38,085 nucleotides of DNA, from the UHGV virus genome UHGV-0010575. The stretch is one strand, 5' to 3'. This DNA is from a virus. The translations under genes were made by a program, and so were the position numbers. A model generated the notes under the pieces. That model saw only the letters and a program-made list of their open reading frames with translations. It had not been told where the DNA came from and ran no database searches. Positions 3,462 through 20,142 of this stretch are shown here, piece after piece. Position 1 is the first letter of the stretch; each line of letters opens with the position of its first letter.

Positions 3462-4356
3462 TGGAAACCTCCAGTTTAGCTTTGCATTCTATGTAAATGG
3501 CTTGTACGTTCTGCTGCAATTTCATTCCAGATGTCAGGCGATATGCTTCTGCAAAATATCGCTTCAAATCATCCATGTTTTCTGCCTGAGCCATTTCATC
3601 ACAAAGAAGTTGTGCTTTTTCCATAATTTCCTGCTGGCGTTTCCGTTCATCTTCGCGGATATATTCCTCTGATTTGTGCGGCATAACTGGTTCAGTCCAC
3701 ACACCTTCTTCTTCGTTTAGTACGTGAATAGCACTATCAAGACGTGATGCCTTAGGCCAATACTTGCTTGCACGCTTTACGACCGTCTTTCGCGCCATCT
3801 CATTCCAGTGATTTACCCATGGTCCTTTATCGCTGAATGCCGCCTTGCTTGTTTTCCTTACAGCCTCAATTTCAGCCAGACTCATCTCTTCCGTTAGATA
3901 ATCACCTGCTGGCGTCTTAACTGTGCAGTAAACGCCAACGATATCACCACGATCACCGAAGGCGTTGTATTTATGGGTTGGTGCTTTATCAAGCCCGTTT
4001 GACTCATAGGTATCGTTAGCATGAACAAGTTTTGCCTGACCCCATGAGATAACACCAGACTCCATTGCAATATGGAGCAATCCCATATAACTGATATCAA
4101 GGCAAACCATGCCGTCGCGCGGAACTAGATAAGCAAGTTTGCTGGCCGGGTTTAAGGTGATGCCGATCGCCGCAACATTGATGATGGCGTTCTGTGCGCT
4201 GGTTGGATTTGCCAGTGCCGTTTTAGCAAGGTAATCATTTTTCTGGAAATACTGAATTGCAAACTGGCTTTCCTTAGCCCATGTCACCGTCTGTTCAGTC
4301 AATGCTCCGCAGAATAACTGCTCCTGCTGTTTAACGAATTCAACGATATTGCTCAT
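3445..4356 (-). CDS. recT: RecT-family single-strand annealing recombinase
   Basis: 303-aa translation with characteristic RecT/Bet-type regions; sits where erf/bet is found in lambdoid early-left operons. Confidence 0.8.
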   Translation of the reverse strand: MSNIVEFVKQQEQLFCGALTEQTVTWAKESQFAIQYFQKNDYLAKTALANPTSAQNAIINVAAIGITLNPASKLAYLVPRDGMVCLDISYMGLLHIAMESGVISWGQAKLVHANDTYESNGLDKAPTHKYNAFGDRGDIVGVYCTVKTPAGDYLTEEMSLAEIEAVRKTSKAAFSDKGPWVNHWNEMARKTVVKRASKYWPKASRLDSAIHVLNEEEGVWTEPVMPHKSEEYIREDERKRQQEIMEKAQLLCDEMAQAENMDDLKRYFAEAYRLTSGMKLQQNVQAIYIECKAKLEVSSEQTI

Positions 4357-4749: not shown

Positions 4750-4898
4750 TTCCTGCGATACCACGGAAGGTTGATAGCTGATTTCATCGCTTTATTTGCT
4801 TCAAGCCACATTTTTGAATCACCAATAAATCTGGCTATTACTGCTTTGTTTTGTGCAGCACGAAGCATCTGGTGATTGATGGCTATTTCATTGCGCAT
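4746..4898 (-). CDS. kil: Kil-like host-killing protein (50 aa)
   Basis: Hand-translated MRNEIAINHQMLRAAQNKAVIARFIGDSKMWLEANK...; central IA.FIGD.KM motif recalled from lambda Kil; position downstream of the cIII-like gene matches lambda. Confidence 0.45.
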   Translation of the reverse strand: MRNEIAINHQMLRAAQNKAVIARFIGDSKMWLEANKAMKSAINLPWYRRK

Positions 4899-5017
4899 AA
4901 CGCCTCCAGTTGTTTCTTTGCTGCTCTGATTAATTGTTTAACTCGGCGTGATAATTCAGATTCGTGCGGGTAGAAAGCGGACATGACGCCGCTACCCGCG
5001 AGCTGAAAGTGCATCAT
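4883..5017 (-). CDS. cIII-like small protein (44 aa)
   Basis: Internal start of track ORF 4883..5122 with AAGGAG 6 nt upstream; AG..V..P.ES.L.RR.K.L pattern resembles lambda cIII core helix (recall only). Confidence 0.4.
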   Translation of the reverse strand: MMHFQLAGSGVMSAFYPHESELSRRVKQLIRAAKKQLEALCAMK

Positions 5018-5233
5018 GGGTAACTCCTTATATTTGATTGCATAACGAAAACGCCTCGAGTGAAGCGTTATTGTTATGCATATAAAAAGGCCCTCACATC
5101 GGAGGGCAAAGAAGATTTCCAATAATCAGAACAAGTCGGCTCCTGTTTAGTTACGAGCGACATTGCTCCGTGTATTCACTCGTTGGAATGAATACACAGT
5201 GCAGTGTTTATTCTGTTGTTTATGCCAAAAATA

Positions 5234-15090: not shown

Positions 15091-15165
15091 GGGTCAGTCG
15101 TATAAAGGTCATTACGGAAGGCTGTTAACCTTCTTATCGTGGTTCGAGTCCACGCTGTCCCGCCA
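15091..15165 (+). tRNA. tRNA-Asn-like (anticodon GTT), 75 nt, one T·T mismatch in acceptor stem and 3-bp D stem
   Basis: Hand-folded cloverleaf: anticodon loop CTGTTAA, T-arm CGTGG-TTCGAGT-CCACG, discriminator G, CCA encoded. Confidence 0.55.
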
Positions 15166-15170
15166 AACAT

Positions 15171-15246
15171 GCTGGTTTAGCTCCAATGGTAGAGCGGTCG
15201 CCTTGTAAGCGAATGGGTAGCGGTTCAAGTCCGTTAACCAGCACCA
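15171..15246 (+). tRNA. tRNA-Thr (anticodon TGT), 76 nt
   Basis: Hand-folded cloverleaf: acceptor GCTGGTT/AACCAGC, D-arm GCTC-CAATGGTA-GAGC, anticodon loop CTTGTAA, T-loop TTCAAGT, discriminator A, CCA encoded. Confidence 0.7.
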
Positions 15247-16077: not shown

Positions 16078-16511
16078 GCAGGTTAACCGCGATTATCTCC
16101 GCTCTGATTATCAGCATCATCGTCTGCCTGTCATGGGCTGTTAATCATTACCGTGATAACGCCATCGCCTACAAAGAGCAGCGCGATAAGGCCGCATCCA
16201 CAATCGCTGACATGCAGAAGCGTCAACGTGATGTAGCAGAACTTGACGCCAGATACACAAAGGAGCTTGCTGATGCTAACGCGACTATCGAAAGTCTCCG
16301 TGCTGATGTTTCTGCTGGTCGTAAGCGCCTGCAAGTCGCCGCCACCTGTGCAAAGTCAACGACCGGAGCCAGCAGCATGGGCGATGGAGAAAGCCCAAGA
16401 CTTACAGCAGATGCTGAACTCAATTATTACCGTCTACGAAGTGGAATCGACAGGATAACCGCGCAGGTTAACTACCTGCAGGAGTACATCAGGACGCAAT
16501 GCCTTCGATGA
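16074..16511 (+). CDS. Rz: Rz-like i-spanin
   Basis: N-terminal TM then coiled coil; ATGA overlap with endolysin stop. Confidence 0.7.
16273..16458 (+). CDS. Rz1: Rz1-like o-spanin lipoprotein embedded in Rz (+1 frame)
   Basis: Signal-like LLVVSAC lipobox and Pro-rich mature region; AAGGAG SD; fully embedded in Rz. Confidence 0.5.
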
Positions 16512-16686
16512 TAGCGATAATTTTACTCATCATCCTTCACATCTGGCTCTGTAGACAGGGTGGTGATCACTTCTGGAGTAAATCCAGATTAAACATCTCA
16601 TTGCTGATGCTTGATATTGAGCATCTGGCGCGCAGTAAGGGGCTGCGTTGAGATAAGAGCCAGTTCATTACAAATACCAGGATTTA

Positions 16687-16712
16687 GCCTCGCATTCGCG
16701 GGGCTTTTTTAT
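16687..16712 (+). terminator. Rho-independent terminator (hairpin CCUCGCAUUCGCGGGG + U6)
   Basis: Same 16-nt hairpin as at 662-677, in inverted orientation. Confidence 0.6.
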
Positions 16713-16854
16713 ATCTGAATTTCACAGCGCATCTCACGCGCATATTAACGAGAGCCTTTCAGTAAGCGAGCCTGAGAAATGCCGTTATAGGTGGCGACCT
16801 CTCTCGGGCGGCTTTTCTGTGAGACAGGCTCACTTTCTAAAAGGTAAAGACGCT

Positions 16855-17352
16855 ATGAAAGCAATCACGCTTTTTAATACACCGATTCGTGTTGATGAAT
16901 CAGGAATGATCTGCCTCACTGATATGTGGAAAGCCAGTGGTAAAAGTGAATCTGAATCTCCGTACCACTACCTGCGAAACAAGCAGACCAAAGAGTTCTT
17001 AGCCGAGCTGGAGAAAAACCACGAATCTGTGGTTTTTACTGAGCGCGGTGTACACGGTGGAACATATGGCGGGAAGTTTGTTGCTTATGATTATGCAGCA
17101 TGGCTAAACCCCGGGTTCAAGTACGCGGCCTATAAAGTCCTCGATGACTACTTCACCGGAGAACTTCAGCATCGCAACAGCTTAAGTGCGCAGCTCAACA
17201 TGAAATGTCATGAGTTTGACCAGAAGAAAGACATGGCGAGCTTCTGCGGACAAGGGCTGGCGGCATGGCGCTATACGAAGCCAGTGTTGGTCGCTGAGAT
17301 TAACTCCCTGGCTAACCAGCTGCAGATTACGATCCCCGGGCTTCCGGGATGA
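16855..17352 (+). CDS. KilA-N domain protein
   Basis: N-terminal region (ITLFNTPIRVDESGMICLTDMWKASGK...YHYLRNKQTKEFLAEL) resembles KilA-N DNA-binding domain; start at internal ATG of track ORF. Confidence 0.55.
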   Translation: MKAITLFNTPIRVDESGMICLTDMWKASGKSESESPYHYLRNKQTKEFLAELEKNHESVVFTERGVHGGTYGGKFVAYDYAAWLNPGFKYAAYKVLDDYFTGELQHRNSLSAQLNMKCHEFDQKKDMASFCGQGLAAWRYTKPVLVAEINSLANQLQITIPGLPG

Positions 17353-17606
17353 GTGATCGTGTCATTGAATGCGCCTCCAGAGCGGGGCGCGACTTCTCAG
17401 AGTTCATGAAAGGCGAGAAGGGCATGATGGAAGCATTGGCCTCGGTGGATGAGTTTGGCGAGCAGCTGCGCCTCAACGGCTGTGTCAATCATCACTTTGT
17501 TAGCTACATGATGCGGAACTCGATCATGCAGGCATTCATGGACATGGCAAAAGCCGAGAGGAAAGAAGAGCGCCGGCGTAAGCGAGCGGAAGCAAAAGCG
17601 AAGTAG
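17349..17606 (+). CDS. Hypothetical protein (85 aa), basic C-terminus
   Basis: ORF in track; ATGA overlap with upstream gene. Confidence 0.5.
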   Translation: MSDRVIECASRAGRDFSEFMKGEKGMMEALASVDEFGEQLRLNGCVNHHFVSYMMRNSIMQAFMDMAKAERKEERRRKRAEAKAK

Positions 17607-17886
17607 CCATTACAAAGCCCATTTACGGGTGGGCTTGATAATGAAACCGGAATTTATTCTGGGCCACCAGTTAACGGCAGTACCACGAAACAACCCAAGC
17701 CAGTAAGCGGGGAAATAACACTGGCAGCCACTGAAAGATGAACCTCCAGCCTTATGGCAAAAAAGATTCTTTGTGGTGGCGGACTGATGGAAAGACATCG
17801 GTTATTGCAGAGGCCATTCAATGAGCGGTCTCGACAATGAGTAAAAGCACAATATGTGAGGCAGAAACGAATTGGTTATATTGAGT

Positions 17887-18030
17887 TTAGGATGGATTTG
17901 AGCCCATAGGGAGTGGGAACGTAACCCAGCCCCCGAGGTAGAAGAGAGCGACATCGACCATGGTGAGTTCTTCGGTATTCGAGGTTAAGCGTTTTACCGT
18001 ATTCATGAATTTTTCTGAATATTTCCTCAT
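17887..18030 (-). CDS. Small hypothetical protein (47 aa) inside inverted-repeat-bounded segment
   Basis: C-terminal part of track ORF 17887..18579 that does not overlap terS; ATG with GGGGG SD; longer track ORF judged spurious upstream of this. Confidence 0.3.
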   Translation of the reverse strand: MRKYSEKFMNTVKRLTSNTEELTMVDVALFYLGGWVTFPLPMGSNPS

Positions 18031-18165
18031 GGCAACCCCCTTGCTTTTGGCTATATCGCTAACAACTTTTACTGCTTTTGGTATCAGTGGATAAAACAAA
18101 AGTCCTACTGCTGTAATGTTTTTCACCACTTGAACGATATCGCTTCCGGCACTCCCTATGGGCTC
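17900..18165. repeat. Pair of perfect 16-bp inverted repeats (GAGCCCATAGGGAGTG / CACTCCCTATGGGCTC) flanking a 234-bp segment
   Basis: Read directly: 17900-17915 and 18150-18165 are exact reverse complements. Confidence 0.6.
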
Positions 18166-18202
18166 GTAGGGAGATAGTTTAACTAAATAAAGAGAATAAG
18201 CA

Positions 18203-18730
18203 ATGGCACTCACCGACAAACAAGAAATGTTCTGTCGCGAGTACCTCATCGATTTAAACGCCACGCAAGCGGCTATTCGGGCGGGGTACAGCGCAAAGAC
18301 AGCTAACCGTACCGCATCCGAAAACCTGTCAAAACATGACATCAAGTTAAGAATCGCCGAACTGAAAGCGCAACGCAATGATCTTGTTGGTATTAACGCA
18401 GAATATGTACTTAATCGCCTTATTGAAATCGACCAGATGGATGTGCTCGACATTCTCCTGCAAAACGGCGAGTTAAAGCCAATTAAAGACTGGCCTAAGG
18501 TATGGCGCACAACGCTATCAGGAATGGATGTCGTGGAGATGGTATCCGCAGATAGCGCCGCACTTCTGAAGAAAATCAAATGGCCTGATAAGGTTAAAAA
18601 CCTCGAACTTCTTGGTAAGCATGTTTCTGTTCAGGCGTTTAAAGAACAAGCTTCTCACGAATTAACAGGCAAAGACGGCGGCGCAATTCAGATTGAAACA
18701 TCACCGATGAGCACTCTATTTGGAAAATGA
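18203..18730 (+). CDS. terS: Terminase small subunit (Terminase_2-like)
   Basis: N-terminal MALTDKQEMFCREYLIDLNATQAAIRAGYSAKTA motif typical of this family; directly upstream of terL. Confidence 0.75.
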   Translation: MALTDKQEMFCREYLIDLNATQAAIRAGYSAKTANRTASENLSKHDIKLRIAELKAQRNDLVGINAEYVLNRLIEIDQMDVLDILLQNGELKPIKDWPKVWRTTLSGMDVVEMVSADSAALLKKIKWPDKVKNLELLGKHVSVQAFKEQASHELTGKDGGAIQIETSPMSTLFGK

Positions 18731-20142
18731 CCTCGATTAATCCTATCTTTGAACCGTTCATTGAGGCGCATCGCTACAAAGTCGCCAAAGGCGGTCGAGG
18801 TAGCGGTAAATCATGGGCAATTGCGAGGCTGCTTGTTGAAGCGGCGCGCCGACAGCCTGTGCGTATTCTCTGCGCTCGTGAACTGCAAAACAGTATCAGC
18901 GATTCGGTAATCCGGTTGCTTGAAGACACCATCGAGCGGGAAGGGTATTCGGCTGAGTTTGAAATTCAGCGTTCCATGATTCGTCATCTCGGAACGAATG
19001 CTGAATTCATGTTCTACGGCATCAAAAACAACCCGACGAAGATTAAATCGCTCGAAGGCATTGATATCTGCTGGGTGGAAGAAGCGGAAGCGGTAACGAA
19101 GGAATCATGGGATATCCTGATACCAACCATCCGTAAGCCGTTCTCTGAAATATGGGTGAGCTTTAACCCGAAGAACATACTCGACGATACCTATCAGCGA
19201 TTCGTTGTAAATCCTCCCGATGATATTTGCCTGCTGACGGTGAACTACACCGACAACCCGCACTTTCCTGAGGTTCTCCGTCTGGAGATGGAAGAGTGTA
19301 AACGCAGAAATCCGACACTGTATCGTCACATCTGGCTTGGTGAGCCAGTAAGCGCAAGTGATATGGCAATCATCAAACGTGAATGGCTTGAAGCAGCAAC
19401 CGATGCGCACAAGAAACTCGGATGGAAAGCGAAAGGCGCTGTTGTCTCTGCGCATGACCCATCAGATACAGGGCCAGATGCTAAAGGTTATGCATCGCGT
19501 CACGGTTCGGTGGTTAAGCGCATTGCCGAAGGTCTGCTGATGGACATCAACGAGGGTGCTGACTGGGCTACTTCGCTGGCGATTGAAGACGGCGCTGACC
19601 ATTACCTGTGGGATGGTGATGGTGTTGGTGCCGGGCTACGCAGACAGACAACGGAAGCGTTCTCCGGCAAGAAAATCACCGCCACGATGTTCAAGGGCAG
19701 CGAATCGCCATTCGATGAAGATGCACCGTATCAGGCCGGAGCATGGGCTGATGAAGTCGTACAGGGCGACAACGTTCGCACTATTGGCGATGTGTTCCGC
19801 AATAAGCGAGCGCAATTCTATTACGCGCTGGCTGACAGGCTGTATCTGACATATCGGGCGGTTGTCCACGGTGAGTATGCAGACCCCGACGACATGCTGA
19901 GTTTCGACAAAGAAGCGATAGGCGAGAAGATGCTGGAGAAGCTGTTTGCAGAACTGACGCAGATTCAGCGCAAATTCAATAATAACGGGAAGCTGGAGCT
20001 TATGACTAAGGTCGAAATGAAGCAGAAGCTCGGTATTCCATCTCCTAACCTGGCTGATGCGTTGATGATGTGTATGCATTGCCCGGAGTCGGCTGCGCAA
20101 CCCGACTATTCCAGTTACTCAATTCCTTGTGGTGTAGGTTGA
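18727..20142 (+). CDS. terL: Terminase large subunit
   Basis: 471 aa with Walker A-like GGRGSGKS and nuclease-domain acidic residues; overlaps terS stop. Confidence 0.85.
   Translation: MTSINPIFEPFIEAHRYKVAKGGRGSGKSWAIARLLVEAARRQPVRILCARELQNSISDSVIRLLEDTIEREGYSAEFEIQRSMIRHLGTNAEFMFYGIKNNPTKIKSLEGIDICWVEEAEAVTKESWDILIPTIRKPFSEIWVSFNPKNILDDTYQRFVVNPPDDICLLTVNYTDNPHFPEVLRLEMEECKRRNPTLYRHIWLGEPVSASDMAIIKREWLEAATDAHKKLGWKAKGAVVSAHDPSDTGPDAKGYASRHGSVVKRIAEGLLMDINEGADWATSLAIEDGADHYLWDGDGVGAGLRRQTTEAFSGKKITATMFKGSESPFDEDAPYQAGAWADEVVQGDNVRTIGDVFRNKRAQFYYALADRLYLTYRAVVHGEYADPDDMLSFDKEAIGEKMLEKLFAELTQIQRKFNNNGKLELMTKVEMKQKLGIPSPNLADALMMCMHCPESAAQPDYSSYSIPCGVG

Follow-up and report, generated by a model that had tools for sequence, protein, structure and literature searches.

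The DNA studied here, UHGV virus genome UHGV-0010575, is a lambdoid or P22-like prophage of Escherichia coli with its late operon on the plus strand, and "the window" will denote the whole 38,085-nucleotide (nt) stretch that was analyzed. Just upstream of terS, the gene for the small terminase, lies an element that combines a pair of inverted repeats with a small gene read from the minus strand. A repeat search found the arms, GAGCCCATAGGGAGTG at 17900-17915 and its reverse complement at 18150-18165, to be 16 nt long and 100% complementary with 234 nt between them. This bore out the exact 16-bp arms described in an earlier note on this DNA, and the minus-strand open reading frame (ORF) of 47 amino acids (aa) that the note had placed between the arms, upstream of terS, indeed carries a good Shine–Dalgarno sequence (AAGGGGG, 5 nt from the ATG). 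Even when up to three mismatches were allowed, the arm sequence was found at only these two sites in the window, with 0.16 matches expected by chance, and by chance 38 kb would hold only about 0.003 perfect inverted pairs of 16-mers no more than 300 nt apart (38085 x 300 x 4^-16). We conclude that the inverted repeat is functional as RNA and is not a mobile or invertible element. As judged from comparison of related sequences, its arms are the core of a long-range duplex within the RNA of the minus-strand gene, and the covariation evidence for this conserved duplex is strong. The positions of all features are given in Table 1.

Table 1. Features of the element and its surroundings, in window coordinates.
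Feature	Position	Strand	Remarks
Right inverted-repeat arm, 5′ arm of helix 1	18150..18165	-	GAGCCCAUAGGGAGUG; at, or at most ~4 nt from, the predicted transcript 5′ end
Left inverted-repeat arm, 3′ arm of helix 1	17900..17915	-	CACUCCCUAUGGGCUC; inside the ORF, codons for P-L-P-M-G-S
Helix 1 extension, GGA with UCC, 3 bp	18145..18147 with 17916-17918	-	Beyond a 2-nt internal loop; columns 25-27 with 258-260 of alignment A5
Helix 2, 5′ strand	18131..18144	-	AGCGAUAUCG.UCA; in the 5′ leader
Helix 2, 3′ strand	17947..17960	-	UGG.CGAUGUCGCU; codons for M-V-D-V-A; helix 2 probability 0.63-0.98
Helix 3, UGGUGA with UCACCA	18123..18128 with 17961-17966	-	5′ strand contains the GUG start; pairs 46-51 with 208-213
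Long ORF form, 79 aa	17887..18126	-	GUG 18126-18124, TAA 17889-17887
Short ORF form, 47 aa	17887..18030	-	AUG 18030-18028, stop 17889-17887; AUG invariant in all haplotypes
Shine–Dalgarno sequence AAGGGGG	18036..18042	-	5 nt upstream of the internal AUG
Candidate sigma-70-like promoter for the minus-strand gene	18176..18203	-	-35 TTGCTT 18203-18198, 16-nt spacer, -10 TAAACT 18181-18176
Annotated coding sequence WP_024244326.1, hypothetical protein, 108 aa	17887..18213	-	Prokaryotic Genome Annotation Pipeline (PGAP); GTG at 18213
Local hairpin CTCCCTA-N8-TAGGGAG	18152-18158 / 18167-18173	+	Unique to the window haplotype
44-aa ORF	17960..18094	+	Shadow of the minus-strand frame; third codon positions coincide
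terS, small terminase	18203..18730	+	Pfam Terminase_2, E 5e-39; divergent from the minus-strand gene
KilA-N protein	16819-17352		Between Rz and the 85-aa ORF

Protein and DNA searches yielded eight distinct haplotypes of the element with 84-100% nucleotide identity, here called family A, to which the window belongs. An exhaustive hidden Markov model search of 1.8 billion representatives returned this family itself together with one distant relative of 50 aa, which led to a second family, B, comprising seven haplotypes with about 50% nucleotide and 36% amino-acid identity to family A. Having these two families, we could ask of each base pair whether it is retained when the sequence changes. The duplex consists of 16+3+10+3 bp, coaxially arranged and about 32 bp in total, and a column-by-column reading of the alignment of both families (A5) showed helices 1 and 2 to be kept in both, with helix 3 kept in family A only. 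Applied to the eight family A haplotypes, RNAalifold predicted the helices that close the 5′ and 3′ ends upon each other, and in this family 37 pairs were 99.7% paired. With 11 haplotypes, 32 pairs were 96% paired and both sides had changed in 11 of them. None of 500 shuffles reached the observed values on four of the five measures of covariation and pairing, which include the percentage paired, compensatory pairs, compensatory cells and the covariation score, and controls in which the strands had been slid gave 38-46% pairing with at most one compensatory pair. Across all 15 haplotypes, compensatory changes were found in about 13 of the 32 pairs without any indels, a pair count that ignores the window row, for which the values were taken from the strand-comparison analysis; within the arms of helix 1, compensatory changes affected 8 of the 16 pairs.

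Family B has a repeat of its own in the same register as that of the window but with a different sequence, as exemplified by locus L025 with 27-nt arms at 3856-3882 and 4115-4141 that are 81% complementary and lie 232 nt apart. Its helix 2, again in the same register, is formed by GACGUCAUUCA and UGAAUGACGUC, 11 nt with 100% complementarity. Folding of single haplotypes agreed with the comparative result, giving helices 1 and 2 at probabilities of 0.63-0.99, with the right arm paired at 0.95 in the window and at 0.73-0.99 in relatives, and with minimum free energy (MFE) z-scores of -4.1 for the window and -3.7 for L025. An Rfam scan of 16500-19000 at E <=1 gave no match over 17600-18200 and two chance-level matches elsewhere. 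The earlier note had also pointed to a local hairpin formed by the right repeat, and this is present in the window but peculiar to its haplotype, being absent from all other family A haplotypes, in which 3-4 nt are deleted at that site.

As both strands of a perfect repeat can fold, we used the one-sided substitutions for assigning the duplex to a transcript. In family A, 18 cells were G·U and none A·C when read on the minus strand, and about ten one-sided transitions all keep pairing on that strand only; counted over all haplotypes, G·U and A·C cells numbered 22 and 6, respectively. This pattern points to the minus-strand transcript as the one carrying the selected helix. The strand call rests on the G·U pattern of family A, the ORF and the promoter, because the counts from family B are uninformative.

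The interior of the element evolves as coding sequence under purifying selection in the minus-strand frame, as judged by its substitutions. Variable sites of family A within 17900-18165 were distributed 33:22:13 over minus-frame codon positions 3:1:2, and the ratio of non-synonymous to synonymous substitution rates (dN/dS) was about 0.3 whether computed for the 5′ paired part, for the center or for the short ORF, and also had this value upstream of the internal AUG. Between the families there were no indels over 88 codons, the block had the same length in 15 of 15 haplotypes, and the minus frame stayed open with 33 identities out of 92 positions and a BLOSUM score of 160. The plus-strand frame with the same third positions contains stops and scored 104 in the same comparison. 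We consequently rejected the plus-strand 44-aa ORF as a real gene, on the grounds of its shared third positions, its stop after seven codons in L025 and its lower BLOSUM score.

Several starts can be considered for the minus-strand gene. The annotated PGAP coding sequence is identical in two E. coli genomes, and its start at 18213 is probably too far upstream, because relatives carry in-frame stops just upstream of the 5′ arm (L004, L006, L019, L025 and L037) as well as, between the -10 box and that arm, indels of lengths not divisible by three; we therefore rejected that start. The first start codon common to relatives is instead a GUG at codon 14 (18126), found in 14 of the 15 haplotypes, and the internal AUG (18030) is codon 46. 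In family B, the internal AUG is preceded at 7 nt by the Shine–Dalgarno sequence AAGGAG, and the distant 50-aa homologue, P0009, was called from the same start as the internal AUG. Invariant residues are also found in codons 1-13 (G4, S5, D9 and Q12), and these pair with the likewise invariant 3′-end codons P84-L85-P86, V72 and M69, so that pairing alone can explain their conservation and codons 1-13 can be an untranslated leader. It is not certain that the long 79-aa form is a product.

Regarding the protein itself, the ORF matched phrog_36259, an entry lacking a function, with an E-value of 6.5e-52, and neither Pfam, NCBIfam nor PADLOC gave any meaningful match for the 47-, 79-, 94- or 108-aa forms. 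The 79-aa protein is basic with two moderately hydrophobic segments, and the short form has one hydrophobic segment, at its C-terminus. We found no mention of the accession WP_024244326.1 in the literature searched. As a separate observation, P0010, a protein of 85 aa from the search of representatives, gave a weak match (E 9e-4) with two tandem repeats of ...LQILFYLGC.(K/T)FPLPM..., resembling the C-terminal motif LFYLGCWVTFPLPM of the element protein.

The -35 box of the candidate promoter of the minus-strand gene overlaps the A of the terS ATG, and scanning the same aligned site in relatives gave TTGATA-16-TAAACT in L020 and L003 and TTGCTA-16-TAAAAT in L004, consensus promoters with 9 of 12 matches that end about 8 nt before the 5′ arm. 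Past the stop codon, L028 has a strong intrinsic terminator at a distance of 12 nt. Using partition function calculations we found the GUG to be 0% unpaired in seven of the eight family A haplotypes, and the Shine–Dalgarno sequence and AUG of the short form to be about 50% unpaired. Immediately before the 5′ arm, the family B copies (L025 at ~3850-3860, and L027, L028 and L037-L040) have in common the motif GATCAATA(T/G)T, which includes the Dam site GATC and may be a -10 region or a regulatory site.

Taken together, we consider it reasonably probable that the element is a duplex within the mRNA of a small accessory prophage gene, which lies antisense to the late operon just upstream of terS. 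The transcript would start at about 18169 from its own promoter overlapping the terS start codon, and its first ~39 nt (18165-18127) would make up the 5′ strands of two coaxial helices, with the 3′ strands being provided by codons near the end of the ORF (17960-17947 and 17918-17900), such that the mRNA closes on itself around a loop of about 170-230 nt. Translation from the GUG would yield the 79-aa basic protein and translation from the internal AUG its 47-aa C-terminal part. The duplex would act in cis and post-transcriptionally, burying the GUG together with its weak Shine–Dalgarno-like sequence and thereby leaving the open internal AUG as the default start. Ribosomes translating the last 20 codons would have to melt the duplex, and this melting could either couple the two starts or set mRNA stability or sensitivity to RNase III. 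The duplex thus probably sets start choice or mRNA lifetime, because it would hide the leader and the GUG, would be melted by ribosomes and is long enough for RNase III. The repeat, the conserved and covarying duplex, the reading frame, the promoter consensus and the rare, mosaic occurrence are established by the analysis; the start codon used, the ends of the transcript and the regulatory target of the duplex are what we infer.

A number of observations weigh against this account. The 15 haplotypes fall into two clades, and many of the compensatory cells derive from one deep split between them. The family B counts, with four G·U against six A·C cells, do not pick a strand, those from the 15 haplotypes being similar, and the late, plus-strand transcript forms nearly the same helices, with 91.5% of cells across haplotypes still paired. 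With regards to expression, the -35 box of the window, TTGCTT, is weak with three of six matches, leaving the promoter below the scan threshold, the family B promoters were not convincing in the same type of scan, no intrinsic terminator was detected downstream in the window, and both the 5′ and the 3′ end of the transcript are predictions. The GUG start lacks a well-spaced Shine–Dalgarno sequence and is GCG in L025 and L026. As to the product, the Kyte–Doolittle maxima over 19 residues (1.4-1.6) are borderline for membrane insertion, and AlphaFold2 gave the 79-aa form a predicted local distance difference test score (pLDDT) of 55 and no recognisable fold.

The reading of the repeat as DNA rather than RNA was largely refuted by these analyses. 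The earlier note had suggested an insertion resembling a miniature inverted-repeat transposable element (MITE), or an invertible or recombinogenic element, and the arms could then be terminal inverted repeats or the crossover sites of an invertible or excisable segment. Perfect 16-bp arms around a short segment that related prophages either carry or lack would suit that idea, as would the finding that homology to the window stops 2-10 nt from the left arm in divergent loci. However, the flanks (...GGATTT|GAGCCC and GGGCTC|GTAGGG) hold no direct repeat and thus no target-site duplication, only one copy was found per genome in both E. coli carriers with no other copy in the window, and homology runs past the right arm via the promoter into 44-290 bp of terS, so that only the left boundary lies near an arm. 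In addition, the interior is coding with constant length and under purifying selection, the arms change by compensatory substitutions including G·U, unlike DNA recombination sites, the orientation relative to the late operon was constant wherever flanking genes had been called, and no recombinase was found within 3 kb and no transposase nearby. We regard a mobile or invertible element as very improbable. Equally hard to credit is the repeat being a chance by-product of coding sequence or mosaic recombination without any function of its own, as contradicted by the covariation. Both arms do lie in or beside a reading frame and the central CCCATAGGG is itself nearly palindromic, but the arms occur far above the chance expectation for the window, family B retains the pairing with other arm sequences at a nucleotide identity of 50%, and four of five measures exceeded all 500 shuffles.

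If the repeat is functional as RNA, it could still act in the other transcript or in another manner. The earlier note had proposed a large RNA structure regulating terminase expression, and of this the RNA structure stood, as a covarying duplex, while a role in the late transcript or for terminase became less likely given the G·U pattern, the promoter and the ORF. In that alternative the helix would act in the plus-strand late mRNA upstream of terS, as an RNase III site or by tuning or stabilising terS and terL, with the minus-strand ORF being secondary. The check by RNA folding that the note had proposed for the late transcript confirmed that the perfect repeat folds equally on the plus strand (MFE -83.9 kcal/mol, z -3.5), in line with the high degree of plus-strand pairing across haplotypes, and in both families the element abuts a terS start in spite of the terS genes being unrelated, with family B having as many A·C as G·U cells. 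Against it, the one-sided changes of family A, by 18 to 0, leave G·U pairs when read as minus-strand RNA but C·A when read as plus-strand RNA, the elements of L008-L015, L004/L019 and L005 are away from a functional terS, lying beside remnants or none at all, selection on the interior is for a protein encoded by the minus strand, and the terS ribosome-binding site is outside the helices. The element adjoins non-homologous terS genes and also terS fragments, so that any effect on terminase would be hypothetical. We hold a function in the late mRNA to be quite unlikely. The other possibility, also unlikely in our view though slightly less so, is a module resembling type I toxin–antitoxin systems, in which a hydrophobic peptide is silenced by the fold-back of the 5′ onto the 3′ part of its mRNA, with the late transcript or a plus-strand small RNA (sRNA) as antisense. 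The small ORF (47-79 aa) with its hydrophobic C-terminal segment agrees with this, as do the position of the gene wholly antisense to a highly expressed operon and the conserved long-distance interaction closing the mRNA, an interaction of a kind that in hok stabilises an untranslatable closed mRNA (PMC9841398). However, scans of the window, L020, L003, L004, L025 and L028 gave no plus-strand promoter inside the element, and a complementary late transcript is not a dedicated antitoxin. Moreover, the strong Shine–Dalgarno sequence and AUG are not sequestered, and the 3′ partner of the fold-back is in the coding region instead of the 3′ untranslated region (UTR), so that 3′ trimming in the manner of hok would destroy the ORF. 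The hydrophobicity is borderline, and there was no match in Rfam, Pfam, NCBIfam or PADLOC. A more elaborate version, with just as small a probability in our judgement, would be a self-closing type-I-toxin-like cassette, producing a basic hydrophobic peptide from a circularised mRNA in lysogens and having the late transcript as its antisense switch. Were this true, late transcription would turn the peptide off, or else expose the occluded GUG to give the longer isoform, and an exclusion or abortive-infection function would be tied to the lytic decision.

Returning to the preferred reading, of a duplex in the mRNA of an accessory gene, we analyzed how the element is distributed and what surrounds it. 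Region 17840-18210 of the window is rare, with 2 carriers among 5,426 complete E. coli genomes and none among the phage records. Neither blastn in distant mode nor tblastn with both families matched any of 50,697 phage records, a tblastn search of the plasmid collection using family A gave no match, two scans of species-representative genomes gave none, and a scan of metagenomes added only copies identical to the window. The protein clusters of the family numbered only about nine among 5.8 billion. The context of family B is like that of temperate phages of Enterobacter, Klebsiella and Erwinia. Wherever flanking genes had been called, the element was antisense to the late operon, between the lysis or accessory genes and the packaging genes. 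Following the proposal of the earlier note that related prophages be compared for presence or absence of the segment, we found that they do differ, the terS type of the window being present in 218 complete E. coli genomes and the element in 2 of these 218. Other cargo can occupy the same slot upstream of terS, such as the divergent gene for the 182-aa hypothetical protein WP_000762846.1 in L029/L030 (1433-1981) or the divergent pair of DUF2158 and DUF6953 genes in L008 (3811-4307), and in these loci the homology to the window begins exactly at the terS ATG.

The relation to terS itself varied among the loci. In the window, L002 and L020 the element abuts a full Terminase_2 terS, and in L025 and L028 it abuts a terS not homologous to that of the window. 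The L008-L015 copies adjoin 250 bp left over from the 5′ end of terS, located at ~4818-5068 (equal to window 18203-18453) between the Rha or lysis genes and DUF2560; the functional terS of these prophages follows about 1 kb later. In L004 and L019 just 44 bp of terS are left beside the element, and in L005 none are adjacent. Terminase_2 terS 5′ fragments were also seen on the opposite side, about 60-90 nt downstream of the 3′ arm of the element in L039/L040 and at 2665-2881 in L005. Judged from these gene arrangements, that of L008-L015 is probably the relic of an earlier recombination event in which the element traveled along with its promoter region, and the presence of terS fragments on either side shows what would be a repeated shuffling of the element versus pieces of terS. 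By its distribution, the element behaves as a rare moron, with its slot just upstream of terS.

A moron is an independently expressed accessory gene inserted in a phage operon, in the Hendrix/Juhala definition as quoted in a passage of PMC2629481. Like such genes, the element is a small accessory gene that is present or absent among close prophages, in a fixed slot between lysis or accessory genes and terS, it is oriented against the late operon with a candidate promoter consensus of its own and, in L028, a predicted terminator, and it is carried between phage lineages with unrelated packaging genes. The bor gene of phage lambda is an example of a moron placed antisense between lysis genes and the terminase. 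The element resembles neither bor nor any other product of a named moron, and it stands out by a covariation-supported duplex that links its 5′ leader with the 3′ part of its coding sequence. We know of no description of a duplex between leader and coding end in a moron.

The main known examples of such duplexes are type I toxin mRNAs, with the Helicobacter pylori aapA1/IsoA1 system being comparable to hok/sok. In the hok/sok type of toxin mRNA, tac and fbi engage in a 5′–3′ long-distance interaction (PMC9841398). The element resembles this type in its mRNA of about 270-400 nt, a predicted size, which would encode a ~50-aa peptide including a hydrophobic segment of borderline strength. As in the toxin mRNAs, its extreme 5′ end would pair close to the 3′ end, so that the mRNA is closed and one of its translation starts hidden. 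It differs in having the 3′ partner in the coding region and not in the 3′ UTR, in keeping its strongest Shine–Dalgarno sequence and AUG accessible, in showing no antisense sRNA gene within the element, and in having no sequence or Rfam similarity. Another point of comparison are the RNase III sites of phage mRNAs, such as those of sib/int retroregulation in lambda and the intercistronic sites of T7. The element shares with these a long near-perfect duplex in a phage transcript; its length would suffice for RNase III, and a cut within it would fall in the 3′ end of the ORF. The known sites are local hairpins, whereas the arms of the element are 234 nt apart. The entries phrog_36259 and WP_024244326.1 represent the same protein family as the ORF of the element but carry neither a function nor an RNA structure. 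The element is in this sense a variant within known kinds, a long-distance mRNA fold-back in a moron, and not a mobile element.

If the reading is right, this would be a compact phage accessory gene having an mRNA that pairs its 5′ leader with its own coding end, the pairing having been preserved through compensatory changes in two families with about half of their nucleotides in common. It suggests that such an architecture may be required, or put to use, by morons that oppose a strongly transcribed operon. A database gene model is corrected as well, with the annotated start probably lying too far upstream and the plus-strand ORF being a shadow, and the position directly before terS emerges as one where cargo genes with divergent transcription recur. 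The family being rare, its practical impact is modest for now.

The gene order of the window around the element is tRNA-Asn and tRNA-Thr, followed by holin, lysozyme and Rz, the KilA-N protein, an 85-aa ORF, a 600-bp gap, and then terS, terL and portal. The tRNA-Asn (GTT) and tRNA-Thr (TGT) genes, at 15091-15246, lie between a Q-type antiterminator and the holin, an arrangement as in many lambdoid and P22-like phages. Directly after the 85-aa ORF, at 17608-17643, there is a terminator-like stem, AAGCCCA-N8-TGGGCTT, which has a T-run on neither strand and was not called by the terminator scan. A non-coding stretch of 240 bp at 17600-17839 recurs, with 94-99% identity, in 1,121 E. coli genomes as well as in 165 records of P22-like phages, and the similarity of the window to those phages stops at 17839. 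This stretch appears to be a shared linker or recombination joint past the lysis and accessory genes.

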